26,246 nucleotides of DNA from Chthoniobacteraceae bacterium (GTDB lineage: Bacteria > Verrucomicrobiota > Verrucomicrobiia > Chthoniobacterales > Chthoniobacteraceae). Of this stretch, positions 1 through 24,411 are shown piece after piece (within the stretch, counting starts at the first letter, position 1; every line of letters starts with the position of its first letter). Position numbers and translations under genes: made by a program. The stretch is taken from assembly GCA_031409655.1 (NCBI GenBank), contig JANNXQ010000109.1, positions 1 through 26,246 of the forward strand, in the 5' to 3' direction. The notes beneath the pieces were generated by a model. That model made no database searches and was not told the DNA's origin. It worked only from the letters and a program-made list of their open reading frames with translations.

Positions 1-126
1 GATCGCCTCCCGCACGAGGTCGGCCTGCGGCTGCGTAAGCCACCGGTCGCGCCCCGCGTGGTGCCAGCCAGCGTGCTGATTCGCAACCACCACGGCGTCC
101 AAGACTGGGAGCACTTCCTCGGTTAG
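1..126 (+). CDS. 3' end of a hypothetical protein (partial)
   Basis: Frame 1 is open from the window edge to TAG at 124-126 (DRLPHEVGLRLRKPPVAPRVVPASVLIRNHHGVQDWEHFLG*) with GC-rich third positions. No family recognised. Confidence 0.4.
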   Translation, partial: DRLPHEVGLRLRKPPVAPRVVPASVLIRNHHGVQDWEHFLG

Positions 127-159
127 TGCCTGCCAGCCGCCTCCGAGCCGCTGCGTGTC

Positions 160-182
160 TTTGACATGCAGCGGCTCGCATG
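160..182 (+). promoter_or_regulatory. TTTGACA-N11-GC-ATG motif, copy 1
   Basis: TTGACA at 161-166 and ATG at 180 (13-nt gap). Same spacing as the copies at 1933 and 3590. Confidence 0.7.
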
Positions 183-437
183 GCGTCCACGCCCGACTAT
201 TCCATCGGCTTCACCCGCGCAGAGGTGGAGGAAATCCTCGCCGCCCAAAAAGCGGAGTTGAAGCGCACACTCGCGGCGTGGTCGGAATCTGGGTCGTCGG
301 TGCAGAAACGCCGCATCGACGAGATCCACGCGATCATCGCCGCGTGCCAGACGGCACTGCGGAAGCTCGCACCGGAAATCTACGGCCGTCCCGTGCGTGT
401 CGGCACGAGCGAGGTCGTCGGCCATCTGCCCAAATGA
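180..437 (+). CDS. Phage head-to-tail joining protein (lambda gpW-like position and size)
   Basis: 85-aa helical ORF immediately before the portal, with an ATGA overlap at 434-437. Assigned mainly by synteny. Confidence 0.6.
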   Translation: MASTPDYSIGFTRAEVEEILAAQKAELKRTLAAWSESGSSVQKRRIDEIHAIIAACQTALRKLAPEIYGRPVRVGTSEVVGHLPK

Positions 438-1884
438 ACCCGCTCCGTTCCATCATCACTGCGATCCTGCCGCGTGCTTGGTTCAGCCCCTACGAATCGG
501 CGAACCCATCGCCACGTCGCGGGCGGGTGCCGGGCGCGGCTCCGCGTGATGCAAAGCTCGATCTGCTGCCCGGCGTTCGGCGCGACTTGGTCCGTCGATC
601 GCGCTACCTCCACAAGAACTCCGGCTTCGTGCGCGAGTTGGTCGGCAACATGGCGATCTACGCCACCGGCGACGGCATCAAGCCGCAGGCGCTTTCGGGC
701 AATACCGAGTGGAACAAGGCCGCCGAGGAATACTTCGCGCAATGGGCCGCTCAATGTGAGGTCAGCAATCGCTTCTGCTTTGCCGAGTGCCAGGCACTCG
801 TCTGCCGCGGCATGGACGTGGACGGTGAATACTTTGTCCACAAGACGCGGAACCGCGACGGCGCGCTGCGACTGCAACTCATCGAATCGCATCGCATCGC
901 ATCGGCGACGCCGACCAGAACGACACCGAAGACGGATCGGCTTCGATGAGTTTGGCGCGCCGGCCTTTTACCGCGTGCTCCTCGATGACGGCGGCTTCAA
1001 AGACGTGCCCGCGCATCTGATGCTCCACGTCTTCGAGCCGGAATACGCGAGCGCGGTCCGTCAGGCGCCCGCCTTGCAGCACTCGATCAACCACCTCCTC
1101 GACGCGATGGAGTTGCTGGCCTTGGAAAAGCACGCGGTCAAAGACAACGCGGACGTGTCCCGCATTCTCAAGACCGAGCGCGGTGAACTCGACGAGGATG
1201 GCGACTTCGCCATCGGCAAGCCGGCTGCCAACGGTGAGAAGAGCGAGCCGGGTGCGTTGCAGAAGATCATGGGTGGCAAGCTCGTGGCGCTGAAGCCCGG
1301 AGAATCTCTCGACAGCTTTCAGCCGAACCGGCCCAGCCCCACATTCACGGGCTTCCTCGAACATCTGCGCCGCGACTCCGCACTCGGGCATATCCCATTC
1401 GAGTTCGCCGCCGACTCAAGCAAGGTTGGCGGTGCCGGTGTGCGGCTGGTCGTGGCCAAGGCCGACCGCCGCTTTTCCTATCGCCAGCTCATCCTGATTG
1501 AGCGGTTCCTCAAGCCCGTCTGGTTCTTCGTCATCGGGGACGCGATTGCGAATGACCGGCTCGCGGCCGTGGAAAACTGGACGAAGGTGGCTTTCACCAC
1601 ACCCCGGCGAGTGACCGTCGATGCCGGGCGCGAGGCCCAGTAGAACCGGGCGGATGTGGAGATGGGAATCAAAACACTCCACGCCCATTACGCCGAGCAG
1701 GGCATGGACTTTTCGGAGGAAAAGGAAATCCGTGCGCAGAACGCGCGCTCTCCTGGATCTGGCGCGGAAATACGATGTGCCGCTGGCCATGCTCTATCGC
1801 CCGAGCGGTGGCATTGATGCGACGCCGGTCGTGGGGGAGATCGAAGACCCACCGGCGACCATCGGCATTCGGCAGCCGGGTTGA
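434..1884 (+). pseudogene. Lambda-family phage portal protein, disrupted
   Basis: Portal-like segments (RRSRYLHKNSGFVRELV, DGEYFV, LQLIESHRI, IGFDEFGAP, LKPGESL..FQPNRPSPTFTGF, VDAGREAQ) lie in different frames. Lesions: extra ATCGC unit at ~886-900, 1-nt loss at ~935, in-frame TAG at 1641-1643, frameshift at ~1745. Final stop at 1884. Confidence 0.88.
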
Positions 1885-1931
1885 GCATTCGCAAAAGCAG
1901 CGGAGTTCATTGCGCAATGAACGGCCGCCCT

Positions 1932-1954
1932 TTTGACAGGCGGCACCGGGCGTG
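1932..1954 (+). promoter_or_regulatory. TTTGACA-N11-GC-GTG motif, copy 2
   Basis: TTGACA at 1933-1938 and GTG at 1952 (13-nt gap). Confidence 0.7.
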
Positions 1955-2017
1955 ACGCCACTTCTCCACGCCATCCATTACCAGCCCTGGCTGATTACGC
2001 CCGAGGCTCACGCGGCC
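1952..2017 (+). pseudogene. N-terminal stub of an S49-family (lambda gpC-like) capsid maturation protease
   Basis: Reads MTPLLHAIHYQPWLITPEAHAA, resembling the 'PWLITPE' N-terminus of phage S49 proteases. It sits directly after the portal and behind the motif, then runs into a hairpin and stops at 2080. Confidence 0.55.
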
Positions 2018-2039
2018 ACCCTCTTTCGGTGCGTGTTGC

Positions 2040-2073
2040 AAAGCCCCGCTGCTGGAAACGGCAGCGGGGCTTT
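2040..2073. terminator. Intrinsic terminator-like hairpin, possibly bidirectional
   Basis: AAAGCCCCGCTGCTG-GAAA-CGGCAGCGGGGCTTT: 15-bp stem with one G-U pair, GAAA tetraloop, short A and T runs at the base. Confidence 0.75.
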
Positions 2074-2135
2074 CACGTGAAGCCATCAGACTCGGCAACT
2101 CAGCGAATCCTGATGGCGCCTCACTGAAATCAGCT

Positions 2136-2151
2136 TACGATTTCCGCTGTG
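2136..2151 (+). promoter_or_regulatory. Possible -10 element for a leaderless transcript of the sheath gene
   Basis: TACGAT at 2136-2141, 7 nt before GTG at 2149, with no Shine-Dalgarno sequence. Confidence 0.35.
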
Positions 2152-3537
2152 CGCATCTTTACTGCCATGCTCGCCGCGGTGCTTTGCCTGGCGGCAGTTC
2201 CAATCGAAGGAAAAGGCCAGGTGACACCATTGCCAACTTCGAACGCGGCGCTGCTAGGACGCTTTGCCCGCGGGCCGATTGATCTGCCCGTCCTCGTGGG
2301 ATCGGCTGAGTTCGCTACGATGTTCGCTTCATCCGCTCCCGCGGCGTGGCCTGCGGAAGTGCAGGCCCGGCAGTTCTTCGCCAATGGGGGCGTCTCTTTG
2401 CACGTCACACGCATCTCGGACAGCAAACCGCTCGGCGACGCCCTGGCTGGCCGTGACACAGATCGCAGCGGGCTCCACGCGCTCGAACCACTCAGCAATC
2501 TACGGTTGCTGGTTGCGCCGGAACTCAGCCTGGTGCCTGCGGTCTCGTTTGCCTCAACGTTCGCAAGTTTCCGTGCCTTTCTTGAACCGCGTCGAATCTT
2601 CTTCGTGCTCGATCCGCCGCCGGGATTCGCCAGCGCAGCCGCGGTCATCAATTGGGTCAATGCGGCGGTGCCGGCGGACGCATCGTTTTGTGCGCTCTAC
2701 TTTCCCTACCTCGACGTGTTGCTCGACGGCGCGCCGCTGACCATCACCGCTTCCGGCGCGATGGCGGCAATCTATGCGAAAGGCGATGCTGCCCTGGGAA
2801 TCTGGCGGAGCCCGGCAGGGACGAGCCTGCCGCTGCAGGCGGTGGCACTGACTCCGGCGCTCACCACCGCGGACATCGATTCCCTCAACACCAGTCACAT
2901 TTGTTCGATCCGCCAATTCACCGGCATTGGCATTGTGCCGTGGGGCTCACGAACGCTTGACCGCAATAGCGTGAATAACCGGTTCATTTCCGCGGTCCGA
3001 ATGCGAGATTGGGTCGCGGCGTCGATTGAACGTTCCCTGGCTTTCGCTGCGACAGCCGACAACGCGACTCCGCTCTGGAGCCAGATCACTACATTGGTGC
3101 AGGACTTTCTGCACTCGCTCTATCAACAAGGCGCCCTGGTCGGCACTACGCCTTCACAGGCTTACTTCGTGCGCTGCGATGCCACGACAACATCTGCTTC
3201 GGACATCGCCGCCCATCGCATCAATGTGCTCTATGGGATGGCACTTCTCAGGGCCGCGGAGTTCGACATCACGACGCTGAGCGCCGCCACCTACGACAGT
3301 TTGCAGCCGGTGCCAGTTCCCGCGCTCCACCCGCGCAGCCTCAGCGGCGAACTCCTGCTCCCATATCCCACAGTCGCCGGATTCAATTACGTGCTGGAGT
3401 CTAAACAAGACCTTCAATCCGCCATTTGGGAAAGCGTCAGCGGGCCGATCAGCGGCGATGGAGCCTGGCGGATGCCTGCCATCCCGATCACAGGTGACCG
3501 CGCATTCTACCGCGTGCGCATTGCTCCGGCTCGCTGA
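2149..3537 (+). CDS. Signal-peptide-bearing tail sheath family protein (eCIS/Afp-like) with a C-terminal Verrucomicrobia-type FYRV domain
   Basis: N-terminal MRIFTAMLAAVLCLAAVPIEGKG. Sheath motifs GRFARGP, FFANGG, ALYFPYL, SGAMAAIYA..D...GIWRSPAG, WGSRTL, LWSQI..FLHSLYQQGALVG..QAYFVRCD..T..DI, LRAAEF. Tail YVLESKQDL..W..GDG..FYRVRI. Reading frame intact. Confidence 0.85.
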   Translation: MRIFTAMLAAVLCLAAVPIEGKGQVTPLPTSNAALLGRFARGPIDLPVLVGSAEFATMFASSAPAAWPAEVQARQFFANGGVSLHVTRISDSKPLGDALAGRDTDRSGLHALEPLSNLRLLVAPELSLVPAVSFASTFASFRAFLEPRRIFFVLDPPPGFASAAAVINWVNAAVPADASFCALYFPYLDVLLDGAPLTITASGAMAAIYAKGDAALGIWRSPAGTSLPLQAVALTPALTTADIDSLNTSHICSIRQFTGIGIVPWGSRTLDRNSVNNRFISAVRMRDWVAASIERSLAFAATADNATPLWSQITTLVQDFLHSLYQQGALVGTTPSQAYFVRCDATTTSASDIAAHRINVLYGMALLRAAEFDITTLSAATYDSLQPVPVPALHPRSLSGELLLPYPTVAGFNYVLESKQDLQSAIWESVSGPISGDGAWRMPAIPITGDRAFYRVRIAPAR

Positions 3538-3553
3538 GAAGTCCGGGATCTTG

Positions 3554-3576
3554 TGCCAGCGGACGCTTCGCTGGCA
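3554..3576 (+). terminator. Hairpin downstream of the sheath gene
   Basis: TGCCAGCGGA-CGC-TTCGCTGGCA, a 10-bp stem 16 nt after the stop codon. No clear U-tract. Confidence 0.4.
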
Positions 3577-3588
3577 ACGCGGTAGCGC

Positions 3589-3611
3589 TTTGACACTCGT
3601 GGGCAGGCATG
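3589..3611 (+). promoter_or_regulatory. TTTGACA-N11-GC-ATG motif, copy 3
   Basis: TTGACA at 3590-3595 and ATG at 3609 (13-nt gap). Confidence 0.7.
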
Positions 3612-3917
3612 TCCCTGCACGACGAAAAAGCCGCTGCACTCGCCGAGGTTGTCGCCGCCACAGGGGAGGAGATTACCTGGAAGGGGAGGACGATCCGCGC
3701 ACTCGTCTCCGACAACCCACTGAGCCAGGATCTCGGTCCCGGCGGATTCGAGGCGAAGGGCGATTGCACGATGAAGGTGCTGCGCTCGGAGCTTGGCACC
3801 GACCGGCCAAAGCTCGGCGAAACGGTGGCGTTCCAAGGCGCGACCTATCGAATCACGCGTGTCACCGACCACCCGCAGTTCCCGATGATCGTGCTCGTCA
3901 TCGAGCCGGAGGACTAA
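3609..3917 (+). CDS. Phage head-tail joining/closure protein (gpFII-like)
   Basis: 102-aa beta-rich protein with the PKLGETVAFQGATYRITRV pattern typical of head-closure proteins; position after the head module. Confidence 0.65.
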   Translation: MSLHDEKAAALAEVVAATGEEITWKGRTIRALVSDNPLSQDLGPGGFEAKGDCTMKVLRSELGTDRPKLGETVAFQGATYRITRVTDHPQFPMIVLVIEPED

Positions 3918-3922
3918 ACGCC

Positions 3923-4327
3923 ATGCTCGACCACACACTCGATGAACTCCTGTTCGCGCACTTGAAAACGGTGCCCGCACTCGCCGCGCTCAACGGCTTC
4001 ACCGGCCAGGACAATGCGGATCACAAACTGCCGGTACTGACCATCAGCACCACGTCGGAACCGCTCGCCGGCTCGGACACGGCGTTTCGCGGCGAGGTCG
4101 GGATCATCATCGAAAACGAGGCGCACGACACGACCGCGGCGGCGCACGGTGAGCGGGTCGAGGCTGTGCGAGTGGCGCTCTCCAATCGCGCGGCGGTCAT
4201 CGCGGCAATCAACGCGACCGGACGGTTGCACATCTACGGCTACGCGCCGCTCGGCACCGAGCCCACGGCGGGCGACGCTCGTTTCACCACGAACCTCAAG
4301 TATCGCTTCGGCTTCGGCCCGGCGTGA
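3923..4327 (+). CDS. Phage tail terminator-like protein (gpU-like)
   Basis: ATG at 3923 after a GGAGGA; 134 aa (MLDHTLDELLFAHL...KYRFGFGPA); lies between the head-closure and tail tube genes. Confidence 0.5.
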   Translation: MLDHTLDELLFAHLKTVPALAALNGFTGQDNADHKLPVLTISTTSEPLAGSDTAFRGEVGIIIENEAHDTTAAAHGERVEAVRVALSNRAAVIAAINATGRLHIYGYAPLGTEPTAGDARFTTNLKYRFGFGPA

Positions 4328-4347
4328 AAGGACACCACCTCGCCGGT

Positions 4348-4680
4348 ATGCCCGCCAACGACGTAAAATTCGGCATCTCTCGCCACACCGGCACGCTCAT
4401 TGATTCGGTGGAAACCGACGACAGCGTTCAGGTCAAGGAACTCCCCGGCAGCAACGGCGACATCGCCCGCGTGAAGCTCTATCGCAAGACCATCGAGGGT
4501 AGCGTGAAAGGCCATGGCGCGCTCGCGGTGGTGCCGGGCGTCGGCGATCCCGGCGTGAGCGGGCTGTCGGCCGGCAGCGTGACGGTGATCACCAACGTGA
4601 AGCGCAGCGAGAACAACGAAGACTTCGACGGCTGGGAATACAGCTTCAAGAACTACCCGAACGCGGAGGCCCTGACCTGA
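4348..4680 (+). CDS. Putative tail tube protein (short, 110 aa)
   Basis: ATG at 4348 is preceded by AGGACA at the same 13-nt spacing as the TTGACA motif. Beta-strand-rich (VITNVKRSENNEDFDGWEYSF); upstream of the chaperone gene. Confidence 0.5.
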   Translation: MPANDVKFGISRHTGTLIDSVETDDSVQVKELPGSNGDIARVKLYRKTIEGSVKGHGALAVVPGVGDPGVSGLSAGSVTVITNVKRSENNEDFDGWEYSFKNYPNAEALT

Positions 4681-5123
4681 TGAAAAAGGGCGACCACCTT
4701 TGCATCCTGCGCGCCGAGGTGAGGACGGAGGCGGACGGGCTCAATCTCCTCCGGCTCGTAGCCGCGCTCACCACCATCGGCGTCCCACTCGACGACGACT
4801 GCCCGTATCTGGAAACGCGTGAGCTGGTTGAAGGTTCGGAGCGGCGTCTGGTGACGTGGACGCTCAAGGCCATGAGCATTTGCGGGCAATATGATGCGCG
4901 GAAGCTGATCGAAGCCTGGCACGACCCGGTCTGGACGACGCAAAACGCCGAGCATCCCTTCGCCTACATCAAGACGGCGTTCCAGAATGCGGGGCTGCTC
5001 GCAGCGGAAGTGGCCCGGCTTGCGCCCGTCGCGTTGATTCGCAAAGGCCAGAAGTTCGCCTTGGTGCCTTTCGACGCCACGCTGGAACGCCGCCAGGAAC
5101 TCTTCTCCGCTCTCGACCAATGA
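4680..5123 (+). CDS. Phage hypothetical protein
   Basis: 147-aa ORF coupled by a TGATG overlap upstream and an ATGA overlap downstream. Confidence 0.7.
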   Translation: MKKGDHLCILRAEVRTEADGLNLLRLVAALTTIGVPLDDDCPYLETRELVEGSERRLVTWTLKAMSICGQYDARKLIEAWHDPVWTTQNAEHPFAYIKTAFQNAGLLAAEVARLAPVALIRKGQKFALVPFDATLERRQELFSALDQ

Positions 5124-5569
5124 CCACGGGCGAACGCACCCAAGCGAATCTGGCTACGTTCATCGCGCCGATGCCGGAAACCTCCGGCATCACGCTGCGG
5201 CCATTCTCGGCGGGCACACTCACGCTCTGCCGCGCACTCGGCCTTTCGATGGTCGTGGGCGGCGACAAGGAGCAGGTCGAAGCGCTCTCCGCCGACGACA
5301 AGCAGCGGCAGCTCACGACGTTCCTCTTCATCCAATCGCAGCCGCTCGACGTGGTGAAGAAGGCGGTGAAGCTCGCGCGCGAAGACCGCCAGGCGTTCGA
5401 GGATGAGTATCTCCTTCCCTTCGAGCTGGAGCTGCCGGTCACCGCCATGTTCACGGCTATGGCGCAACTCGAGAACAACCTCACCGCCATCGAGGCCGCG
5501 CAGAGCGAAGTCCTGCCCCGGCTAGGCGGAGGCAGGAACGAGTCGAAGGCTCCGCCGCACCCAAACTGA
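5120..5569 (+). CDS. Tail assembly chaperone (gpG-like)
   Basis: 149 aa; ends in C CCA AAC TGA, an in-phase X XXY YYZ slippery heptamer at the stop, as is established for siphophage G/GT chaperones. Confidence 0.7.
   Translation: MTTGERTQANLATFIAPMPETSGITLRPFSAGTLTLCRALGLSMVVGGDKEQVEALSADDKQRQLTTFLFIQSQPLDVVKKAVKLAREDRQAFEDEYLLPFELELPVTAMFTAMAQLENNLTAIEAAQSEVLPRLGGGRNESKAPPHPN
5560..5566 (+). promoter_or_regulatory. Programmed -1 ribosomal frameshift site CCCAAAC
   Basis: Heptamer is in the correct phase immediately before TGA at 5567, and the -1 frame reads as plausible protein. Confidence 0.65.
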
Positions 5570-5796
5570 TCGAGCCAGTGTGGACGGCGAGCTTCGTCTT
5601 CACACTGGCGCGAGAAACGGGATGGCCGGAGCACTTCATCTTCTGAGAACTGCCCCTCGCGCGGCTTCGCCAATACCAGCACTGTGCCTTGCGCGCGCAC
5701 GATGTCTGGACGGTGCCGGTCGCGCCTCCTGCGACCCATCAGCTTGAAACCTTGCTGACGAACTGGAGACCCGTTGAACGGACGCCTGCGTTTTGA
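5560..5796 (+). pseudogene. gpT-like frameshift extension of the tail chaperone, with an internal nonsense codon
   Basis: The -1 frame reads KLIEPVWTASFVFTLARETGWPEHFIF*ELPLARLRQYQHCALRAHDVWTVP...; TGA at 5644-5646 is probably a mutated TGG. Confidence 0.6.
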
Positions 5797-6439
5797 TCTG
5801 AAGCCCATCCAGCGCGGCATCAAGGCGCTGGCACCACAGGTGAAAAAGTCGCGGCGCGAACTCGCCGAAGAAGCCGCACGCGGCTTCGTGAAGGAAGTGG
5901 TCGCGATCACGCCCCCGGCGTCGAAGGGCAAGCGGGGGAGTGCAGCAAAGAAGGCCGGTGAAGGCGCCATCATCGCCGACCTCGCACGCGTCATGGTCGC
6001 AGCCGCGCGACGCAAGGGCGTGAAGCTGGGCGACCCGGCGGAGATCCACAAACGCCTGCGCGATCCAAACACCGGCCGGATCAATCCGCGCAACCTCAAG
6101 AGCCCGTATCCAGTGGACGCCTCGGCACTGCGCGCCCCCAAAAGCGAGCTGCTCAAGCGAGTCGGTGAACTCGCCGCCGGCTGGAACGCAGGCGCGCAGA
6201 AGCTCGGCGTGAAGCTTCCCGCGTGGGTCGCTCGCCACGGCTCGTCACGCAGTTCGGCGACCGTCATCAACACCTTCCGCGTCTTCCGCATCATCCTCAC
6301 CAACGCGGTGAAATACGTGACGAAGGTGGACGCCTACGACCGGCGCATCCAGTCGGCCATCAACATCCAGGGCAAGAAGATGCAGCGGCGCGCGGAGTTC
6401 CTGCTCGCGCGTGCGTTGAAGATCGCGGGCTGGCGCTGA
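5774..6439 (+). CDS. Phage tail completion/neck-like basic protein (HK97 gp10-like)
   Basis: 221 aa, very basic, with 'VVAITPP' and 'GELAAGW' resembling the gp10-family pattern. TTG start is uncertain. Confidence 0.5.
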   Translation: MNGRLRFDLKPIQRGIKALAPQVKKSRRELAEEAARGFVKEVVAITPPASKGKRGSAAKKAGEGAIIADLARVMVAAARRKGVKLGDPAEIHKRLRDPNTGRINPRNLKSPYPVDASALRAPKSELLKRVGELAAGWNAGAQKLGVKLPAWVARHGSSRSSATVINTFRVFRIILTNAVKYVTKVDAYDRRIQSAINIQGKKMQRRAEFLLARALKIAGWR

Positions 6440-8004: not shown

Positions 8005-8340
8005 ATGAATGACAACGATCCCATCCGCGAAAGGCTCCAGGCTTGGAAAGTCGAACCGACCGTCCCGAACCGCTTTCACGCTGATGTGTGGGCGCGGATT
8101 CGCGAGCGGGAAGAAGCGCGTGAGGCGACGATTGGGGCTGGTTTCCTCAACTGGCTCTTTCCTTCGCGAGCGACCTGGCAGCTTGCTGCGGTGACCGCCG
8201 CGGTCCTCATTGCAGCCGGCGCTGGCTTGGGGAATCTCACTGGCGCTTCGGCCAACGAGCGGAGCCGGGCCGACCTCGCGATGCGTTATGCGCAGGCTGT
8301 CGATCCTTACCTCCAGGTGAGCTTGCACTCCGCCAAATGA
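8005..8340 (+). CDS. Membrane anti-sigma factor (CnrY-like)
   Basis: Cytoplasmic N-terminus (LQAWKV.P..P.RF..DVW.RI), a single TM helix and a short periplasmic tail (YAQAVDP); first gene of the triad. Confidence 0.7.
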   Translation: MNDNDPIRERLQAWKVEPTVPNRFHADVWARIREREEAREATIGAGFLNWLFPSRATWQLAAVTAAVLIAAGAGLGNLTGASANERSRADLAMRYAQAVDPYLQVSLHSAK

Positions 8341-8813
8341 AACGCGCGCTCATCATCCTCCTCGCCGGACTCGCGCTCGGAGCGGCGACTTACTTTCTCT
8401 GCTTTCGCATGGCGACCCAGCCGATGCGGCAGGTGGCGTCGGTCGAGAATGAACTCGCCTGGCTGGCGATGGAGTTTCGCCTGACTCCCGAGCAGACGCA
8501 GCGAGTCGAGGCGCTCCATTCCGCCTACGAGCCGCGGTGCAAGGAGATGTGCCGCAAGATCGCGGAGAACAACGCGCAGCTCAACCGCTCGATCGCCGCA
8601 AAGCGGGAGTTCACGCCCGAGATGGATCGCCTGCTGCGCGCGAGCGCCGAGATCCAGATCGAGTGCCGCCGCGACATGCTCGCGCACATTTACGCGGTCG
8701 CCGCCGTCATGCCGCCTGAACAAGGCGAGCGCTACATCGGGCTGCTCAAGATGCAGGTGCTCCAGCCCGGCATCATTCATCCGCCGACCGCCGTCGCTCA
8801 CGCGCATGAATGA
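8337..8813 (+). CDS. Periplasmic heavy-metal sensor (CnrX/Metal_resist-like)
   Basis: N-terminal anchor, then WLAMEFRLTPEQ, LHSAYEPRCKEMC, MLAHIYAV and MPPEQ helical-hairpin motifs. Confidence 0.8.
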   Translation: MKRALIILLAGLALGAATYFLCFRMATQPMRQVASVENELAWLAMEFRLTPEQTQRVEALHSAYEPRCKEMCRKIAENNAQLNRSIAAKREFTPEMDRLLRASAEIQIECRRDMLAHIYAVAAVMPPEQGERYIGLLKMQVLQPGIIHPPTAVAHAHE

Positions 8814-9390
8814 CGCTTCCGCGGACGCCGACGTGGCCGCGATGCTGCGGCTGCACGACGGCGACGACCTCGCCCTCAACGAACTGATGAACCGCTGGCA
8901 ACAGCCGCTCGTGCGCTTCCTCTATCGCTATACCTTGAGCGAAGCGGACTCGCTTGATCTGGCGCAGGACACCTTTGTCCGCGTCTATGAGCACCGGGCG
9001 AAATACGATGCGCGCGGGAAGTTTTCGACCTGGCTTTACACCATCGCGACCAATCTCTGCCGCAACCATGCCCGCTGGAAGTCGCGGCACCCGACCGTCT
9101 CGATGGAGGTCGAGCTTTCCGCCAACTCCGACACCACGCTGGGCGAGCAGCTTCCCGACGCGAAGGCGACTCCCGCGCAGTCGGCGCAAACGGACGAACT
9201 CGCTGTCGCCGTGCGCGATGCGATCCAGACTCTGCCTGATGACCAGCGCACCGCGACGCTGCTTTATGAGTATGAAGACGCCGCCTACACAGACATCGCC
9301 AATCTGCTCGGCTGCTCGGTCAAAGCCGTGGAGAATAAGCTCTACCGCGCCCGCCAGTCGCTCCGCGAGAAACTTGCCCGCTGGCTCTGA
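8806..9390 (+). CDS. ECF RNA polymerase sigma factor (CnrH-like)
   Basis: Region 2 DLAQDTFVRVY and FSTWLYTIATNLCRN; region 4 YTDIANLLGCSVKAVENKLYRAR. Confidence 0.95.
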   Translation: MNDASADADVAAMLRLHDGDDLALNELMNRWQQPLVRFLYRYTLSEADSLDLAQDTFVRVYEHRAKYDARGKFSTWLYTIATNLCRNHARWKSRHPTVSMEVELSANSDTTLGEQLPDAKATPAQSAQTDELAVAVRDAIQTLPDDQRTATLLYEYEDAAYTDIANLLGCSVKAVENKLYRARQSLREKLARWL

Positions 9391-9468
9391 TTCATACAGC
9401 CAACTAGCTCCCGGCCAGCGAACTTCGTCGTTGATCAAACTCCAATTCTCCGCTCTCTCTTGCCTGTC

Positions 9469-9888
9469 GTGAAAGCTTTCCGCACACCCACCATCAGCCG
9501 CTTCCTCGTCGTTGCAGTGATGCTGTTGTCGTGGTTCGTCATCACGAATCACTGCGCTTTGGCGAGGATGCAGGCGCAGATGGCGGCGCAGGACGAGGCA
9601 GAGTGCTGCCACAAAAAGGGACAGGCATCTGAGAAGGAAGTGCCGTGTCAGGAAATGGCGCAGTGTTGCCAGGCGGTGAAGGCTTCGCTCTCCGGCAAGG
9701 CTGAGGTGAAGTTCGATGCGTCGAATTTTCAGATCCAGTACTTTGCGATTCTCCAAGTGCTGGCTGCGCAGAGCGCGCGTCCGGCTCAGGAACTGGTTTT
9801 CGATCACGGCCCTCCACGAGCGGTCTCGTTCGCGGAATCCGTGCTCCAGCGTAGCCTCCCCAGCCACGCTCCGCCCTTCGCGGCCTAA
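9469..9888 (+). CDS. Exported Cys-rich protein, candidate DUF2946/CutF/CruR-like regulatory leader
   Basis: N-terminal hydrophobic segment ending NHCALA; ECCH and PCQEMAQCCQ; C-terminal HGPPRA and SHAPPFAA. Start is GTG 9469 or TTG 9460. Confidence 0.7.
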   Translation: MKAFRTPTISRFLVVAVMLLSWFVITNHCALARMQAQMAAQDEAECCHKKGQASEKEVPCQEMAQCCQAVKASLSGKAEVKFDASNFQIQYFAILQVLAAQSARPAQELVFDHGPPRAVSFAESVLQRSLPSHAPPFAA

Positions 9889-10051
9889 CGACGCGCCGCC
9901 CGAGCTCGCGGGTCTCGGTGCCGTCGTTTTCTGACCTCTCCAGGTCGCGCTTTCGCGCGCCCTGAACCCTCCCGGCTTCGCGTTGCCTGCGCGCATTCGC
10001 CGGCCCACCTCGCAGGCATCAACAAACCAAAACCAGAAAGCAAAACATCCC

Positions 10052-10318
10052 ATGAAATCCATCGCACTCAGCCTCCTTGCCGTTGCTGCCATGCTCGGCA
10101 GCGTCGCCACCGCCAGCGCCGATAGCGGCGTGCCCAAGGACTACCCGCTCAAAAAATGCCCCGTCTCCGACGAGGAGTTTGGCGGCGGTATGACGCCCTT
10201 CAAGGTCACGCACGACGGCACCGACGTGTGGCTCTGCTGCAAGAAGTGCAAGAAAGGCTTCGATAAAGAACCCGCGAAATTCACCAAAATGGTGAAGGAC
10301 GCCGCAGCCAAGAAGTAA
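10052..10318 (+). CDS. Secreted YHS/TRASH-like metal-binding protein (88 aa)
   Basis: Signal peptide, then KCPVSDE...WLCCKKCKKGFDKEPAKF; A/C-rich leader before ATG 10052. Confidence 0.85.
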   Translation: MKSIALSLLAVAAMLGSVATASADSGVPKDYPLKKCPVSDEEFGGGMTPFKVTHDGTDVWLCCKKCKKGFDKEPAKFTKMVKDAAAKK

Positions 10319-10333
10319 CAGCGCCTGCTGCGC

Positions 10334-10363
10334 CGCGCCGTCCGGAAATTTCCGGGCGGCGCG
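10334..10363 (+). terminator. Intergenic palindrome/hairpin
   Basis: CGCGCCGTCCGGAAATTTCCGGGCGGCGCG, with the perfect core palindrome CCGGAAATTTCCGG. Confidence 0.45.
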
Positions 10364-10425
10364 AGCGCCTCGCGCTCCGTCGCAAACCAACGCTCTGCCT
10401 TCGCGGAGCCCATCCTTTCCAGCTT

Positions 10426-12033
10426 ATGAAACGCCTCGTCTTCACTCTCCTGCTCGTCGCCGCTGCTGCTGCCGGCGGCTGGTGGTTTGGCCGCCAGAGC
10501 CATTCGCACGGCACTGCCAGCGCCGCATCCGGCGAACGCAAGCCACTCTTTTACCAGAGCCCGATGCACCCGTGGATCAAGAGCGACAAGCCGGGCCAAT
10601 GCACCATCTGCGGCATGGACCTGTCGCCGGTCTATGAGTCGGCGCAGTCCTTTGATGCAGCAGCGAAAGACTTGGTGATCCTGCCGGCGGGCAGCCCGCG
10701 CGTGGCGGGCATCGCCAGCGCACCGGCGCAGAAGATGCCGCTCGTGCGCACTCTCCGCGTCGCGGGCATGGTCGATGACGATGCCACGCGGCACCGCTAC
10801 ATGGCGGCGACGATCAAAGGGCGCGTGGACAAGCTCTACGTGAACTTCGTCGGCGCGGAGGTCGAGGAAGGCCAGCCGCTCGCGGAGTTCTTCAGCCGCG
10901 AATTGCTCGCCGCGATTTCCGAATACAACCAGGCGGGCGGCGAAGTAAATTTGCGCCAGGCCGCGACGCTCAAGCTCCGGCAGATGGGACTGACGGAAAA
11001 GCAGATCGCCGAGTTGCCGAAGCGGGACCCGAAGAGTCTCACCGTGCAAATCCTCGCGCCGGTCAGCGGCACGGTCGTCGCGCAGGACGTTTTCGAGGGC
11101 AAGTGGGTCGAGGAAGGCGAGAAAATGCTGGAGATCGCGGACTTTCGGAAGATGTGGTTCAAGTTCGACGCCTACGAGCGCGACCTGCCGTGGCTGAAGC
11201 TCGGGCAAGAGGTGGAGATTCGCACGCCCTCGCATCCGGGCCGCGTCTTCAAAGCGCCGATCACTTTCATCGACCCGAACCTCGACGAGATCACCCGCAC
11301 CGCGAAGGTCCGCGTGGATCTCGACAACCCGCTCGTCGAGGAAAATGGCCGGATGCGCCGCACCTTCCTGCACCGGCTTTTTGCCGAGGCGAGCGTGCAG
11401 ATCGCCGCACCGGAGACGCTCGTCGTGCCGCGCACCGCGGTGCTCTGGCCGGGCGGCCAGCCGCGCGTCTTTGTGGACGAAGGCGAAGGTGCGTTCCGGC
11501 TGCGGCGGGTCACGCTCGGGCGCGAAGGCGACACGCATCTTGAAATCACCAGCGGCCTCGCCGCGGGGGACAAGGTGGTCGTGCGCGGCGGCGTCCTGCT
11601 CGATGGCCAGGCGCAGTTGCTCAACAATTACGAGGAGCCGCCCGCCGATGCGCCCGACGCCGCGCTGACCGCCGCGGATGTCTGTCCGGTCTCGGGCGAA
11701 AAGCTCGGCACGATGGGCAAGCCCTTCGTCCTCACTTACCAAGGCCGAGAGATTCAGCTTTGCTGCAAAGCGTGCAAACCGGACTTCGAGGCGGACCCGG
11801 CGAAGTATCTCGCGAAGCTCAAGAAGCCCGAAGCTGAGCCCGCACCGCCGCCGAAGGAGGCCGCCAAGCCAGGCGCCAGCGTTTGTCCCGTTTCCGGCGA
11901 AGCGCTCGGTTCGATGGGCAAGCCCTTCGTCTTCACGCACGCCGGCCACGACATCCAGCTCTGCTGCAAAACCTGCAAATCCGACTTCGAGGCCGAGCCC
12001 GCGAAGTATCTCGCGCCGCCCGCCAAATCCTGA
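10426..12033 (+). CDS. cusB: RND efflux periplasmic adaptor CusB/SilB with an N-terminal heavy-metal-binding domain and two C-terminal YHS/TRASH domains
   Basis: YQSPMHPWIKSDKPGQCTICGMDL; MFP core (G.VDKLYVNFVG, APVSGTV, FIDPNLDEITRTAKVR); two CPVSGE..CCK.CK repeats. Confidence 0.93.
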   Translation: MKRLVFTLLLVAAAAAGGWWFGRQSHSHGTASAASGERKPLFYQSPMHPWIKSDKPGQCTICGMDLSPVYESAQSFDAAAKDLVILPAGSPRVAGIASAPAQKMPLVRTLRVAGMVDDDATRHRYMAATIKGRVDKLYVNFVGAEVEEGQPLAEFFSRELLAAISEYNQAGGEVNLRQAATLKLRQMGLTEKQIAELPKRDPKSLTVQILAPVSGTVVAQDVFEGKWVEEGEKMLEIADFRKMWFKFDAYERDLPWLKLGQEVEIRTPSHPGRVFKAPITFIDPNLDEITRTAKVRVDLDNPLVEENGRMRRTFLHRLFAEASVQIAAPETLVVPRTAVLWPGGQPRVFVDEGEGAFRLRRVTLGREGDTHLEITSGLAAGDKVVVRGGVLLDGQAQLLNNYEEPPADAPDAALTAADVCPVSGEKLGTMGKPFVLTYQGREIQLCCKACKPDFEADPAKYLAKLKKPEAEPAPPPKEAAKPGASVCPVSGEALGSMGKPFVFTHAGHDIQLCCKTCKSDFEAEPAKYLAPPAKS

Positions 12034-12039
12034 CGTGCC

Positions 12040-15000
12040 ATGATCAACCGCTTCATCGAATGGTCGCTGCGGAACCGCTTCATCGTCGCGTGCTTCACGC
12101 TCGTGCTCGTCGGCCTCGGCGTGCGCGCATTGCTCCGAACGCCGGTCGATGCCATTCCCGACCTGACGGAGAATCAGGTGATCGTCTTCGCCGACTGGAC
12201 CGGACGCTCGCCGCAGGAGGTCGAAGATCAGGTCACGTATCCGCTGACCGTGAATCTCCAGGGCCTCGCCGGCGTGAAGACGGTGCGCGCGACGAGCATG
12301 TTCGGCTTCTCGCTCATCACGGTCATTTTCAAGGACGAGACTGATCCCTACTTCGCCCGCCAGCGCGTGCTGGAGCGACTGAACTATCTCAGCGGCACGC
12401 TCCCCGACGGCGTGGTGCCAAAGCTCGGCCCTGACGCCACCGGCCTCGGCTGGGTCTATCAGTATTACCTCGCCGTCGATCCCGCGAAGGCACCGCAAGG
12501 CGGCTACGACCTCGCGTATCTGCGCGGCGTGCAGGACTGGTTCATCCGCTACCAGCTCAACTCCGTGCCCGGCGTCGCCGAAGTCGGCAGCATCGGCGGT
12601 TTCGTGAAGCAATATCAGGTCGAAGTTTCCTCCGCGAAACTGCGCGACCGCGGCATCCCGCTCACGATGGTCATGGAGGCGCTGCGCAAATCGAACCTCA
12701 ATATCGGCGGCAAAACCGTGGAGGAAAACGGCATGGAGTTCGTCGTGCGCGGCCTCGGCTTGGTGAAAGAAACCGCCGACCTCGAAGACATCGTGCTGAT
12801 GAAACAGAACGGCACGCCCGTCTTTTTGCGCGATGTGGCGCGGATCGAAGTCGGCGGCGACTTCCGCCGCGGCGCGCTCGATGTGAACGGTCGCGAAGTC
12901 GTCGGCGGCACCGTGGTCATGCGTTCCGGCGAAAATGCCCGTGCCGTCATCGCGGATGTGAAAACGAAGATCGCGCAGCTTTCTCCCACCCTACCCGTCG
13001 GCGTGACGATCAAACCGTTCTACGACCGCAGCGATCTCATCGACCGCACCATCGGCACGCTCAAGCACGCGCTCATCGAGGAGATCATCCTCGTCACGCT
13101 CGCGCACGTCATCTTCCTCTTCCATTTCCGCAGCATCCTCATCGTCACCTTTCCGCTGCCGGCGAGCATCCTCATCGCGTTCCTGCTCATGAATGTGTTC
13201 GGCATCACGTCGAATATCATGAGCCTCTCGGGCCTCATCATCGCCATCGGCGTGCTCGTCGATGCGGGCATCGTCATCACGGAAAATGTCATCCGGCATT
13301 GCGAAACCGAGGAGCACCGGCTCAAGCGGCGGCTGACCCGCGAGGAGACGATGGCCTGCACGCTCGCCGCGTCGCGCCAGGTCGGGCGACCCATCTTTTT
13401 CGCGATGGCGATCATCCTTCTCTCGTTCCTGCCGGTCTTCGCGCTGCAAGGACAGGACGGGAAGCTCTTCCACCCGCTCGCCTTCACGAAGACCTTCGCG
13501 CTCATTGGCTCGACCGTGCTCGCGGTCAGCGCTGTGCCGGTGCTGTGCAGCTTCCTCATTCGCGGGCCGTTTCACAGCGAGGACAAAAACTACGTGATGC
13601 GTTTCCTCATGCGCATCTACGAGCCGTCGCTCGATTGGGCGCTGAATCACCGGAAGACCGTGCTCATCATCGCCGCGAGCCTGCTCGCGCTTTCGCAGAT
13701 CATGTTCTGGGGCCTGCCGAAAGCGGTCGTCGCGCAGCTCGATGGCGTGCCCGCGCTGCAAAGGCTCGTTGCCGGAATTGGCAGCGAACACATGCCGAAG
13801 CTGAACGAAGGCAGCCTGCTTTTCATGCCCGTGCTTTCGCCCGCGACTTCGCTCGGCGAGATCAATCGCGTGATGGCGTGGCAGGATGAAATTTTCGCCA
13901 GCTTCCCCGAAGTCGCGCTCGCCGCCGGTAAACTCGGCCGCGCCGAGACAGCCACCGATCCCGCGCCCGTCGAGATGATCGAGACGACGATCACGCTCAA
14001 GCCGAAGGACCAATGGCGGCCCGGCATGACGCTCGCGAAGCTCAAGGACGAGATGGCGCAGAAGCTCATGCAAGTGCCCGGCTTCGTGCCCGGCGGATTT
14101 CTCCAACCGATCGAAAACCGCATCCTGATGATCTCCACCGGCATCCGCGCGCAGCTCGGCGTGAAGATCCTCGGCGACAATCTGGAGGCGCTGCAAAAGA
14201 AAGCCTTCGAGGTCGAGCGCCTCGTCCGCACCGTGCCCGGCGCGAATGGCGTCGCCGTCTCGCGCGTGGTCGGCAAGCCCTACGTCGAAATCATCCCGAA
14301 CCGCAAAACCATCGCCCGCTACGGCCTCGCGATGGAAGACGTGCTGCGCGTCGCCGAAGTCGGCCTCGGCGGTGTGCCGGTGACGACCGTGATCGAAGGC
14401 CGCGAGCGTTATTCCATCTCGCTCCGGCTCGAACGCGGGGAACGCGACGATCTCACCCGCATCGGCGAACTGCTCATCCCGCTCCCGCTCGATGGCGCGA
14501 TGACTCCCGCCGCCGCTGCACCCGCCGGCGGCGCGATGGGTGGAGGCATGGGCGGCGGCGCAACGAGCGGAGGCAGCATGGCCGCGGCGACGCGGGCCGC
14601 CGGTGCCGTGCCGCTCGGGCAGATCGCGGAGATTCGGCGCGTCACCGGCCCGAACGAAATCGCCAGCGAGAACGGCCGCCTCCGTGTCTTCGTGCAGGCG
14701 AATGTGCAAGGCCGCGACCTCGGCAGCTTCGTCGAGGAAGTGAAGGAGCGCGTGGCGAAGGAGATCGTGCCAAACCTCGCGCCGGGCATGACGGTCGAAT
14801 ACTCCGGCGAGTTCGAGAACCAGATCGCCTTCATGAAGACGATGGCGCTCGTCGTGCCGCTCGCGCTCTTCATCATCTTCGTCCTGCTCTTCATCATCTA
14901 CGGCTCGGCGAAGGAAGCCGCGCACGTCATCCTCGCCGTCCCCTTCGCGCTGAGCGGCAGCGTGTTTCTGCAATACGCCCTCGGCTTCCCGTTCACTGCC

Positions 15001-15426
15001 GCGGTCGGCGTCGGCTACATCGCACTTTTCGGCACGGCGATTCAGACCGGTGTGGTCATGGTCGTGTATCTCGAAGAGATGCTGCACAAGCGGCAGCAGG
15101 AGCGCGGCGCCGACTTCAACTACGACGATCTCATCCAGGCTGTGAAAGACGGCGCGAAGCTGCGCCTGCGTCCCAAGGTGATGACCGTCGCCACTACGCT
15201 CGCGAGCTTGCTCCCGGTCTTCTGGATGGATCGCACTGGTTCGGAAGTGATGCAGCCGCTTGCCACGCCTGTCGTCGGCGGCGCGATCAGCAGCCTCATC
15301 CACATCCTCATCGTCACGCCCGTCATCTTCGTCTGGCTGCGGTCGCGCGAGATGGACAAGGCGCGTCGCCTTTCCGACTCCAAGCCGCCGGAGCCCACCC
15401 CCGAACCCGAGCCAGCCCTCGTCTAA
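12040..15426 (+). CDS. cusA: CusA/SilA-family heavy-metal RND efflux pump (likely Cu(I)/Ag(I))
   Basis: DAIPDLTENQVIV, GPDATGLGWVYQY, IAIGVLVDAGIVITEN, RLRPKVMT. Methionine-triad contexts LLFMP, PVEMIET and RILMISTG are present. Confidence 0.96.
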   Translation: MINRFIEWSLRNRFIVACFTLVLVGLGVRALLRTPVDAIPDLTENQVIVFADWTGRSPQEVEDQVTYPLTVNLQGLAGVKTVRATSMFGFSLITVIFKDETDPYFARQRVLERLNYLSGTLPDGVVPKLGPDATGLGWVYQYYLAVDPAKAPQGGYDLAYLRGVQDWFIRYQLNSVPGVAEVGSIGGFVKQYQVEVSSAKLRDRGIPLTMVMEALRKSNLNIGGKTVEENGMEFVVRGLGLVKETADLEDIVLMKQNGTPVFLRDVARIEVGGDFRRGALDVNGREVVGGTVVMRSGENARAVIADVKTKIAQLSPTLPVGVTIKPFYDRSDLIDRTIGTLKHALIEEIILVTLAHVIFLFHFRSILIVTFPLPASILIAFLLMNVFGITSNIMSLSGLIIAIGVLVDAGIVITENVIRHCETEEHRLKRRLTREETMACTLAASRQVGRPIFFAMAIILLSFLPVFALQGQDGKLFHPLAFTKTFALIGSTVLAVSAVPVLCSFLIRGPFHSEDKNYVMRFLMRIYEPSLDWALNHRKTVLIIAASLLALSQIMFWGLPKAVVAQLDGVPALQRLVAGIGSEHMPKLNEGSLLFMPVLSPATSLGEINRVMAWQDEIFASFPEVALAAGKLGRAETATDPAPVEMIETTITLKPKDQWRPGMTLAKLKDEMAQKLMQVPGFVPGGFLQPIENRILMISTGIRAQLGVKILGDNLEALQKKAFEVERLVRTVPGANGVAVSRVVGKPYVEIIPNRKTIARYGLAMEDVLRVAEVGLGGVPVTTVIEGRERYSISLRLERGERDDLTRIGELLIPLPLDGAMTPAAAAPAGGAMGGGMGGGATSGGSMAAATRAAGAVPLGQIAEIRRVTGPNEIASENGRLRVFVQANVQGRDLGSFVEEVKERVAKEIVPNLAPGMTVEYSGEFENQIAFMKTMALVVPLALFIIFVLLFIIYGSAKEAAHVILAVPFALSGSVFLQYALGFPFTAAVGVGYIALFGTAIQTGVVMVVYLEEMLHKRQQERGADFNYDDLIQAVKDGAKLRLRPKVMTVATTLASLLPVFWMDRTGSEVMQPLATPVVGGAISSLIHILIVTPVIFVWLRSREMDKARRLSDSKPPEPTPEPEPALV

Positions 15427-15430
15427 TCCC

Positions 15431-16747
15431 ATGCGTATTTTACCCACACTCCTCATCGTGCTCGCCACCGCCGGCTTCGCGCTCGGCGAAGACTTTACGC
15501 CGGAGACCGCCGCGGCCTACGCGTTGCGCCACAACAAAGACCTGGTCGCCGCGCGGCACGTCATCGCCGAAGCCGAGGGTCGGCTCGTGCAGGCCGGGCT
15601 CTGGAACAATCCCGAGTTCGAGTTTCGCACCGAGTTCGACGCGCGCACCAAAGATGGCAAGCGGCTCTACGAGGGCGGTTTCGTGCAGCGGTTTCCGTGG
15701 TCGGGAAGATTGGCCCAGGCGCGCGCCGTCGCCCGTGTGGATGTGGCGATGGCCGTCGAGGAGCTGCGCGACAAGGAGCGCATGCTCGCCGGAAACGTGC
15801 TCGGCAAAGCGCGTGCGCTGCTCGCGGTGGATCGCAAGCTCGGCATCAACGCCGACAACCGCTCCCTGCTCGACCGCATCTTCAAGCAGACGAGCGCCCT
15901 CACCGCGACGGGCAAGGCGACAGCCGCGGAAGCGCGCGTCATCGAACTGGAGCAGACCACGCTCGATCTCAGCCGCGAGGCGCTGGTCGTCGAGCGCCGG
16001 GCGAAGCTCGCGGAGCTGAACGGCCTGCTCGGACGGGCGCCCGACGATGGCATGAACATGGGCGGTGCGTTCCCGGAAGCACCCGACGCGGCCGCGCTGC
16101 GTGCCGCCGCCGCGCAGGCCGTGAGCCGCCGTCCCGACCGCCAGCTCGCCGCGCTCCAGATCGACAAATCGCAAGCCGAGCAGCGTCTCGCGAAAGCAGA
16201 GCGCTGGGAAGACATCGGCATTGGCGCGAACCTTGTCCGCGAACGCGAGGAAGGCATGTATGAGACGATGGTCGGCATCGGCGTCGCGATCCCGCTCCCG
16301 CTGTGGAATCGCAACCAGGGTCGCATTGCCGAAACGCAGGCCGCGCAGCAGCGCGCGACCGCCGCCGTCGCCGCGCTCGACCTCACCATCGCCACCGAGA
16401 TTCGCGAAGCGGAGGCGCGTGTGACCGGACTCGCGAGCGTGCTCACGCGAACCCGCGGACCCGCGCTGGACCTCGCGCGCCAGACCACAAAGCTCATTGA
16501 GGAAACCTACGCCAGCGGCACCGCGTCGTTTCTCACCGTCTTCGAGAGTCGCAAGCAGCGCCTCGCCATTGAGCAATCCGGCATCGACACCGAAGAACAA
16601 CTCGCGGCGGCGATCACCGATTGGGAAGTGCGCTCGGCCCACTTTCCCGCCCCCGTCCGCGCCGCCCTCGCCTCCGAAGGCCGCCGAGCACCGAAAGCAG
16701 CCGCTGCGAAAACGATCCTCAAACCCGCCAAACGCACTTCGCGCTGA
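15431..16747 (+). CDS. Outer membrane efflux factor (TolC/CzcC/CusC family)
   Basis: ATG at 15431 with a signal peptide; AGLWNNP, RRPD, IPLPLWNRNQGRI and Y..G..SFL.V motifs. Confidence 0.92.
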   Translation: MRILPTLLIVLATAGFALGEDFTPETAAAYALRHNKDLVAARHVIAEAEGRLVQAGLWNNPEFEFRTEFDARTKDGKRLYEGGFVQRFPWSGRLAQARAVARVDVAMAVEELRDKERMLAGNVLGKARALLAVDRKLGINADNRSLLDRIFKQTSALTATGKATAAEARVIELEQTTLDLSREALVVERRAKLAELNGLLGRAPDDGMNMGGAFPEAPDAAALRAAAAQAVSRRPDRQLAALQIDKSQAEQRLAKAERWEDIGIGANLVREREEGMYETMVGIGVAIPLPLWNRNQGRIAETQAAQQRATAAVAALDLTIATEIREAEARVTGLASVLTRTRGPALDLARQTTKLIEETYASGTASFLTVFESRKQRLAIEQSGIDTEEQLAAAITDWEVRSAHFPAPVRAALASEGRRAPKAAAAKTILKPAKRTSR

Positions 16748-22034: not shown

Positions 22035-22091
22035 TGATGTGGCGCAGGCACTTCCGCGACCTCCTCTCCCAAAACTGAATCGAACCCAACC

Positions 22092-23420: not shown

Positions 23421-23438
23421 ACGCCACGCTCCGCCATC

Positions 23439-24362
23439 ATGAAAACCATCCTGATCGCCTACGACGGCTCGGAGTGCTCCGAGGCCATCATCGCCGAACT
23501 CGCGCGCGCCGGCCTGCCCGCACGACTGGAGGCGCATGTCGTGTCGGTCGCGGAAGTCTGGACAGGTCCCGCCGCCAATTTCTCCGGATGGGCAGCCTCA
23601 CCCGAGATGCTGCCTGCGCTGATGGCTGCCAAGGCCGAGACGGCGCAGGGGATGCACGATGCCCGAGCCCTCGCCGAGCAGGGTGCCGCGCGCTTGCGGG
23701 CGGCCTTTCCAGAATGGCGGGTCGAAGCGTCGGGAGATGTGGGTTCAATTCCCCGCGCCATTCTGGAGCGGGTGCGGGAGCTTTCCGCGGATATCATCTT
23801 CATCGGCTCGCACAGCCGCTCTGCGGTCGGGCGCTTCTTCCTCGGCAGCGCGTCGCAGAAGGTGGCGACGGAGGCAAAATGCTCCGTGCGCATCTGCCGT
23901 CCGCGCGCGCCATCAGGAGTCGCGCCACGGCTGCTCGTGGCGGTGGATGGCTCGCTGTCGTCGCAGGCCGCGGTGGGCGCCGTGGCCGAGCGCGCTTGGC
24001 CGGAGGGCACGGTGGTGGCGGTGGTGAACGTCATCGAACCGCAGGTCCGGGCGGGAGTGGCCGAGTTTCCGCCGGATCTTGCCGCCGAAATCCTGCGCCA
24101 GCACGAGGCGAGGCTGGATTGGCTCGAAGCGGTGGGCACTGCCGCGCACCGGCAACTCAAAATCCCCGGCCTCGTCCCCGAGCGCCACACGCTCGACGGC
24201 GAACCAAAGCACACGCTGCTCGAATGGGCGGAACGCTGGAACGCGGACTGTCTTTTCATCGGCGCCTCCGGTCTGCACCACCCCGACACAGCAACGCTGG
24301 GCACGGTGGCCTCGGCCCTGGCCGTGCGCGCCCACTGCTCGGTGGAAATCGTGCGCCCATGA
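23439..24362 (+). CDS. Universal stress protein (two USP domains)
   Basis: ILIAYDGS, IGSHSRS..FFLGSASQKV..CSVRI, LLVAVDGS, LGTVASALA..HCSVEIVR. Confidence 0.93.
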   Translation: MKTILIAYDGSECSEAIIAELARAGLPARLEAHVVSVAEVWTGPAANFSGWAASPEMLPALMAAKAETAQGMHDARALAEQGAARLRAAFPEWRVEASGDVGSIPRAILERVRELSADIIFIGSHSRSAVGRFFLGSASQKVATEAKCSVRICRPRAPSGVAPRLLVAVDGSLSSQAAVGAVAERAWPEGTVVAVVNVIEPQVRAGVAEFPPDLAAEILRQHEARLDWLEAVGTAAHRQLKIPGLVPERHTLDGEPKHTLLEWAERWNADCLFIGASGLHHPDTATLGTVASALAVRAHCSVEIVRP

Positions 24363-24411
24363 CCATTCGCCAAACACCAAACAACTAACCCACCCACCCA
24401 CAATTCCTACC

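Follow-up and report, generated by a model that had tools for sequence, protein, structure and literature searches.

A stand-alone contractile-sheath homologue of Verrucomicrobiota that is very likely exported and non-contractile

The window, by which the whole analysed stretch of 26,246 nt is meant, covers positions 1 to 26,246 of the forward strand of contig JANNXQ010000109.1 in the Chthoniobacteraceae bacterium assembly GCA_031409655.1, a genome with a completeness of 94.9%. It carries a plus-strand gene at 2149-3537 whose 462-aa translation has no internal stops (Table 1), and an independent contig of run X2 repeats window positions 2044-3782 with 0 differences. A sequence-only reading of this DNA had described an intact frame of this length joining a signal peptide, a sheath and a C-terminal domain. 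The frame was translated without stops, every motif quoted in that reading was found, and the three-part architecture is conserved among relatives at 39 to 86% identity; none of the three findings named beforehand as able to overturn the reading, which concerned the leader, the loci of homologues and the matches of the tail, was made.

Table 1. Features of the sheath gene and its immediate surroundings, in window positions
Feature	Positions	Strand	Remarks
Lambda-type portal gene of phage remnant, split over two frames	155..1643	+	PF05136 positions 15-142 and 146-354, two ORFs
15-bp hairpin	2040..2073		Directly before sheath gene; not part of gene family
-10-like hexamer TACGAT	2136..2141	+	7 nt upstream of GTG start; basis TANNNT count
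Sec-type signal-peptide-like leader, residues 1-23	2149..2217	+	Hydrophobicity heuristic
Compact CIS-type sheath core, residues 25-382	2221..3294	+	Without surface insertion domain; FExN lost
C-terminal arm strand, residues 371-380	3259..3288	+	Folded back in model; in family, one face polar
Pro-rich linker, residues 383-394	3295..3330	+	
FnIII-like C-terminal domain (uncatalogued) and stop codon	3331..3537	+	Common to many exported proteins of genome
Downstream hairpin without T-run	3554..3576	+	
Head-closure gene, plus other small ORFs of phage-like kind	3609..6439	+	Firm family match: head-closure gene only

The GTG at 2149 is supported as the start by the position of the TACGAT hexamer, and this hexamer is a probable leaderless promoter of the sheath gene, judging from its spacing. 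A TANNNT hexamer lies 5-9 nt upstream of the start at 7/16 family loci compared with 1.2% of random positions, a count in which one mis-set start was entered as a miss. The -10-like element assigned to the gene by the earlier reading stands as a hexamer with counterparts at other loci, but a stricter scan for sigma-70 sites did not yield a full promoter at the gene. The downstream hairpin is real but lacks a T-run, and the scan did not call it as a terminator.

The gene lies within a phage remnant whose split portal gene agrees with the earlier description of the surrounding phage as decayed. The strong hairpin preceding the gene is probably the post-capsid terminator of this prophage, marking a cargo slot: on contig C107, a similar hairpin lies after a fragment that looks capsid-like by eye, and other cargo genes and a head-closure piece come after the hairpin. 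Window 1-6439 and G000:C107:86860-90840 can be described as two related lambda-portal prophage remnants with different cargo after the same hairpin, and many related phage sequences were present in the sequencing runs examined. Since the sister remnant on C107 holds other cargo in the same slot, and since 20 other loci of the gene family have no phage structural neighbour, the remnant is the vehicle of this copy and not the source of the sheath gene. The sequencing reads contained no clean empty-site joint for the gene. Further along the window (8005-16747 and 20532-25467) lie genes resembling those for ECF sigma and anti-sigma factors and universal stress proteins, together with a heavy-metal efflux-like set of membrane fusion protein, RND pump and outer-membrane channel, all named by eye.

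The core of the protein belongs to the contractile tail sheath superfamily (PF04984/PF17482, phrog_23), whose core fold, comprising domains I and II, is present. The phrog_23 profile matches residues 25-370 with E 5.5e-30, and the best PDB sequence match is a Streptomyces CIS sheath (8bl4, E 7.9e-31). With Phage_sheath_1, the query reached an E of 0.039, under the cut-off, and Pfam alone would therefore miss the sheath; Phage_sheath_1C had no match in the query protein. An AF2 model of the protein (pLDDT 92.8, pTM 0.89) returned CIS sheaths as all of its top Foldseek matches, and it superposes on the Streptomyces CIS sheath 9gts with Z 36.3 and an rmsd of 2.1 A over 328 residues at 28% identity. 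Domains 1 and 2 superpose on those of Cis2 of the Streptomyces coelicolor cytoplasmic CIS (8bl4, 8bky, 9gts), which is described in PMC10066040 as a cytoplasmic protein that polymerises round a tube, contracts and possesses a surface domain 3. In contrast to Cis2, the present protein begins with a leader where the N-arm would be, and it has an added tail, no domain 3 and no accompanying tube or baseplate gene. It also shares the compact core of ~355 aa and the fold of the short eCIS sheaths Afp2/Pvc2 (6rao, 6j0b, 9qgl), although the genes for these lie in complete cassettes and the proteins assemble through strand handshakes, as presented in PMC12546770.

The nearest relatives of the family belong to the single-sheath "PGVYIEE" type of CIS sheath. 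This type, which is common in the order, is a more likely source of the gene than the prophage remnant: 58/401 order genomes match it, and among the best 29 loci inspected, a tube gene adjoins the sheath at 21, compact tube-less leaderless sheaths are encoded at 4, and the remaining 4 are members of the family described here. As for the T6SS sheath (TssB/TssC), the genome gave no match to VipB/TssC (PF05943), whereas the positive control matched in E. coli.

A signal-peptide-like leader, as claimed by the earlier reading, recurs throughout the family. The tail is carried by 82 of the 265 proteins examined; two of the 82 are the window protein itself, and 16 are fragments or proteins with late-set starts. 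According to a hydrophobicity heuristic, 65 of the 66 leader-bearing, tail-bearing proteins, a set that counts the window protein twice, have a hydrophobic leader, compared with 14 of 161 other sheaths. Working sheaths are cytoplasmic and have no signal peptide; by the same heuristic, the family differs from them on this point. The protein is thus predicted to be exported via Sec, and it is very likely an exported, non-contractile sheath that stands alone.

In assembled sheaths, as set out in PMC6088184 and PMC10457771, an N-terminal and a C-terminal arm link three subunits in a four-stranded sheet, and in the free monomer the C-terminal strand is folded back on its own chain. The leader of the present protein occupies the position of the N-terminal arm of canonical CIS sheaths, and the query has no N-arm; the N-arm motif is seen in 2/66 family leaders versus 129/161 other sheaths. 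Two further motifs are likewise depleted in the family, namely FExN (5/68 versus 108/124 in other sheaths), whose conservation elsewhere suggests a role in assembly, and W[KR]APA (1/68 versus 91/124). Within the C-arm, position 373 is D in 57% of the family versus V in 77% of canonical sheaths, and position 375 is T in 70% versus I/L in 86%. One family subgroup retains the N-arm but no longer has PAEF, and its C-arm is shortened, so that each subgroup is seen without one working arm.

The AF2 model places the C-terminal strand back on its own chain, a fold-back that AF2 may produce for any lone sheath. Among 50 structure matches listed, the alignment ends at residue 367-369 in 44, ends at 373 in one and reaches 379-381 in five, two of which (3j2m, 9xps) are not free monomers; three crystal structures of unassembled sheaths align with the model to residue 379-381. 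The modelled fold-back resembles that of CD1363, Lin1278 and DSY3957 (6gkw, 3lml, 3hxl), which are presented in PMC6088184 as assembly intermediates keeping both arms. Unlike in these proteins, the pre-assembly state of the present one looks fixed by sequence change. Taken together, the loss of the N-arm and FExN, the polar face of the C-arm and the likeness of the model to unassembled sheaths make a canonical sheath polymer unlikely, and the scaffold idea of the earlier reading is weakened accordingly for polymers of the canonical kind. It seems rather likely that the protein is mainly monomeric.

A surface polymer of another kind, in which a non-contractile filament or lattice would form through exchange of the C-arm alone or through new contacts, is unlikely on the same evidence. 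The whole sheath fold is intact, EF is kept in the C-arm of 97% of the family and P[ASN]EF in 32/68, and the arm would be freed if the tail were cut off after export. However, besides the arm and motif losses described above, which include the shortened C-arm of the N-arm-keeping proteins, the genome has no gp25-type initiator, and the full-chain pTM of 0.89 suggests that the tail domain packs on the sheath core.

A protein search returned 118 matches among 8000 candidates, of which 66 are close relatives at 39-86% identity, mostly ~460 aa in length; a profile search added more distant members. The relatives number ~80; those that carry a name are MAGs from several orders of Verrucomicrobiota, apart from one that bears just the label "bacterium". 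In a tree built from the sheath core alone (106 sequences, 280 columns, with 45 of the other sheaths drawn at random), 39 family sequences form one clade with a local support of 0.997. The family is under purifying selection: core dN/dS was 0.10-0.23 in 7/10 pairs, values that are rough because dS is near saturation in 6/7 of these pairs, and of the other pairs two were saturated and one was identical. In the one close pair, the tail shows 0 synonymous and 3 non-synonymous changes. Carriers amount to 3/401 phylum genomes, 5/401 class genomes and 5/401 order genomes plus one partial match, with the present genome included in each count, and the family occurs as lone genes in ~1% of sampled Verrucomicrobia genomes. 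An IMG/VR scan gave 88 pattern matches but no relative, the 23 GenBank phage records included none covering 80% of the query, and the ESM Atlas yielded only leads below 0.9. Longer fused forms were represented by 4 weak matches among the 8000 candidates (30-32% identity, at most 59% query coverage).

The earlier proposal of a domesticated, stand-alone sheath is borne out by gene context, as tube and baseplate genes are absent nearby both in the window and at 20 other loci. Neither phage structural genes nor CIS genes occur among the 53 neighbour ORFs of these 20 loci; the neighbours are mostly housekeeping genes that differ by locus. The baseplate gene that the reading had found missing is likewise without a match genome-wide: the whole 94.9%-complete genome gave no match to the Baseplate_J, gp25, CIS tube or VipB profiles and has no second sheath. 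CIS tube and Baseplate_J were absent in 14/16 carrier genomes and found in 2/16, these genomes being incomplete. A link of the family to a CIS of the host itself was considered and rejected, as the tube occurs in only 2/16 carriers and there is no sign of linkage. One genome that also carries the exported sheath family contains a decayed CIS, in which a canonical long sheath is followed by a tube fragment only (L044:5843-8218, profile positions 2-52).

The 26 distinct loci comprise 16 intact ones, 8 broken ones and 2 that are cut by contig ends, and some of the broken copies may be assembly errors. In two genomes of one genus, the sheath gene is 96% identical over 1586 bp and its flanks are unrelated. 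Across 19 loci, no shared flanking DNA or fixed insertion target was found, except in the close pair and in the repeat of locus L005, the only one where a perfect 52-bp inverted repeat (78-129 and 1658-1709) brackets the family gene; tRNAs occur at 3/21 loci. The gene travels as a lone accessory gene, and its patchy spread, its broken state at 8/26 loci and its single-gene moves suggest an accessory gene of conflict. That the protein might be a chance fusion or a decaying prophage part with no function would fit the decayed prophage around this copy and the same 8/26 broken loci, but the purifying selection, the deep single clade, the conserved leader and promoter spacing and the 16 intact loci in unrelated contexts have already largely refuted this explanation, which is now highly improbable.

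The C-terminal tail connects the protein to a much larger set of proteins. A tail HMM iterated on the genome recovered 119 domains in 116 ORFs, 98/119 of them within 15 residues of the stop and 21/119 not C-terminal, in line with the earlier claim that a tail of ~70 aa is a common end of many secreted proteins. Later rounds of the HMM were built without the query, whose tail was recovered at E 2.4e-10, a recovery not fully independent because the first seed came from the sheath family. The signal-peptide heuristic was passed by 49/74 terminal tail carriers versus 819/3864 control ORFs, and the domain is also found on enzymes and large surface-type proteins of the genome. On contigs C124, C127, C130, C170, C235 and C294, a group of exported proteins of 1300-2500 aa carries this FnIII-like domain close to the N-terminal end, with Asp-rich repeats after it.

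The tail matches no Pfam or NCBIfam family above the cut-off. Its model is a small beta-sandwich (pLDDT 91.5) whose best fold matches are FnIII domains, with middling Z values of up to 7.5; a CBM32-like reading, raised by a profile match at E 8.5e-5, had no backing from fold searches and was discarded. As a small beta-sandwich ending many leader-bearing proteins, the tail is reminiscent of the T9SS C-terminal domain of Bacteroidota, and a T9SS-like domain of this kind is suggested for Akkermansia Amuc0953 in PMC13524802. It differs from T9SS domains in its FnIII-like fold and its non-terminal occurrences, and neither the query tail nor 20 sister tails matched Por_Secre_tail (T9SS type A). SprA_N and Por_Secre_tail had no match in the genome, but no control genome matched with these profiles either, and no T9SS C-terminal domain structure appears among the 50 fold matches listed for the tail, with a likeness still possible. 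A surface-sorting role for the tail is plausible.

The tail also occurs on an Hcp protein. At G000:C29:15067-16620 (L127:6065-7618, minus strand), two Hcp (PF05638) genes are adjacent, and the second encodes a TSP3 repeat and the tail. The sheath protein might accordingly belong to an exported tube-and-sheath structure that has escaped recognition, in which its partner would be a signal-peptide Hcp pair bearing the same tail. The two Hcp proteins on contig C29 are both leader-bearing, and such a pair is present in 5/16 carriers (this genome and 4 others), a count that covers carriers only. However, 9/16 carriers have no Hcp match, including G525 (98% complete, with an intact sheath gene), 2 more have T6SS-linked Hcp only, and Hcp and sheath genes were never adjacent in the loci read. 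An obligate Hcp partner is rejected on these carrier counts, and the partnership as a whole appears improbable.

The protein probably acts extracellularly and as an individual unit. In the best explanation, which as a whole is still tentative, a CIS sheath gene would have been captured between a Sec signal peptide and a common Verrucomicrobia C-terminal FnIII-like domain, and the product would be exported and remain monomeric and closed, in the fold that precedes assembly, since it is unable to provide the sheath mesh with both arms. Placed in the envelope or at the cell surface, this monomer would present an unassembled sheath domain I, which could bind parts of incoming contractile machines, whether the exposed tube or the sheath or baseplate strands of CIS, tailocins and myophages, and thereby blunt them. 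Such a decoy role against incoming contractile machines is possible, and it is favoured by the conservation of domain I, the frequent gain and loss of the gene and the commonness of CIS among relatives. Domain I, the tube-facing part of CIS sheaths as depicted in PMC8894135 and PMC12546770, has a conservation of 0.70 versus 0.66 for the rest of the protein. Several results count against the decoy: of the residues on helices close to the tube, Q312 and R314 are retained but E290, E291, Y294 and L315 are not, comparison with the PADLOC-DB 2.0 defence models matched 0/5 proteins, and the 53 scanned neighbours of family loci include no defence island.

The capture by itself needs no role in conflict, since Verrucomicrobia put the leader and tail on many unrelated domains. 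The sheath fold of the exported monomer could instead act as a stable scaffold or adhesin that binds an unrelated ligand, such as a polysaccharide, a mineral or another surface protein. The family-specific conserved residues S61, W67, E70, Q72, E125 and P175 lie partly outside the arms, the same tail ends enzymes and large surface-type proteins, the neighbours give no conflict signal, and the tube-facing residues are only partly kept, all of which would suit such a scaffold. No ligand-binding motif or neighbour supports it, however, while the tube-facing domain I is no less conserved than the rest of the protein and exported sheaths have arisen more than once. A scaffold for an unrelated ligand is considered less likely than the decoy, though likelier than a surface polymer.

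Sheaths with unusual architectures also occur beyond the family. On inspection, ten sheaths outside it begin with a leader or membrane anchor, one Armatimonadota and one Bdellovibrio protein among them; these leader-bearing, tail-less sheaths are P0069, P0109, P0135, P0151, P0157, P0168, P0170, P0183, P0199 and P0238, some of which are lipoprotein-like and keep the N-arm. They occupy several tree positions with weak deep support and apparently had several origins. Compact sheaths with a C-terminal AAA ATPase domain (P0155, P0179, P0190, P0208, P0220, P0235, P0253 and P0259) are scattered in the tree, and P0196 is a sheath-tube fusion. Tube-less compact sheaths with the N-arm stand alone among unrelated genes at L105:9100-10215, L107:8241-9782, L108:9165-10394 and L106:5446-7230, the last frame also including an AAA domain, together with a short match to ABC_toxin_N. 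A broader reading, in which several phyla would repeatedly have made sheaths into exported, polymerisation-blocked monomers that serve as envelope decoys against CIS, tailocins, T6SS and myophages, with the tail as an undescribed surface-sorting signal and the Verrucomicrobia family as the best-sampled member of this class, is doubtful at present.

To our knowledge, every sheath protein described so far belongs to a contractile machine assembled in the cytoplasm. No description of exported or orphan sheaths was found in the titles and abstract beginnings of the open-access literature, and the terms "signal peptide" and "Verrucomicrobia" are absent from PMC9230969. The sheath fold is known, and this architecture and its putative use are new; also new are the loss of the N-arm and of FExN, the polar face of the C-arm and a model that resembles unassembled sheaths. 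A lone sheath that is under selection, apparently exported and devoid of an assembly arm implies a second use of the sheath fold. If this use is defence, the family would represent a form of resistance to injection machines that needs neither a change of receptor nor toxin-specific immunity. Even with no role in defence, the protein would provide a sheath monomer that is naturally stable in its pre-assembly state, as well as a compact test cargo for the uncatalogued C-terminal domain of Verrucomicrobia.
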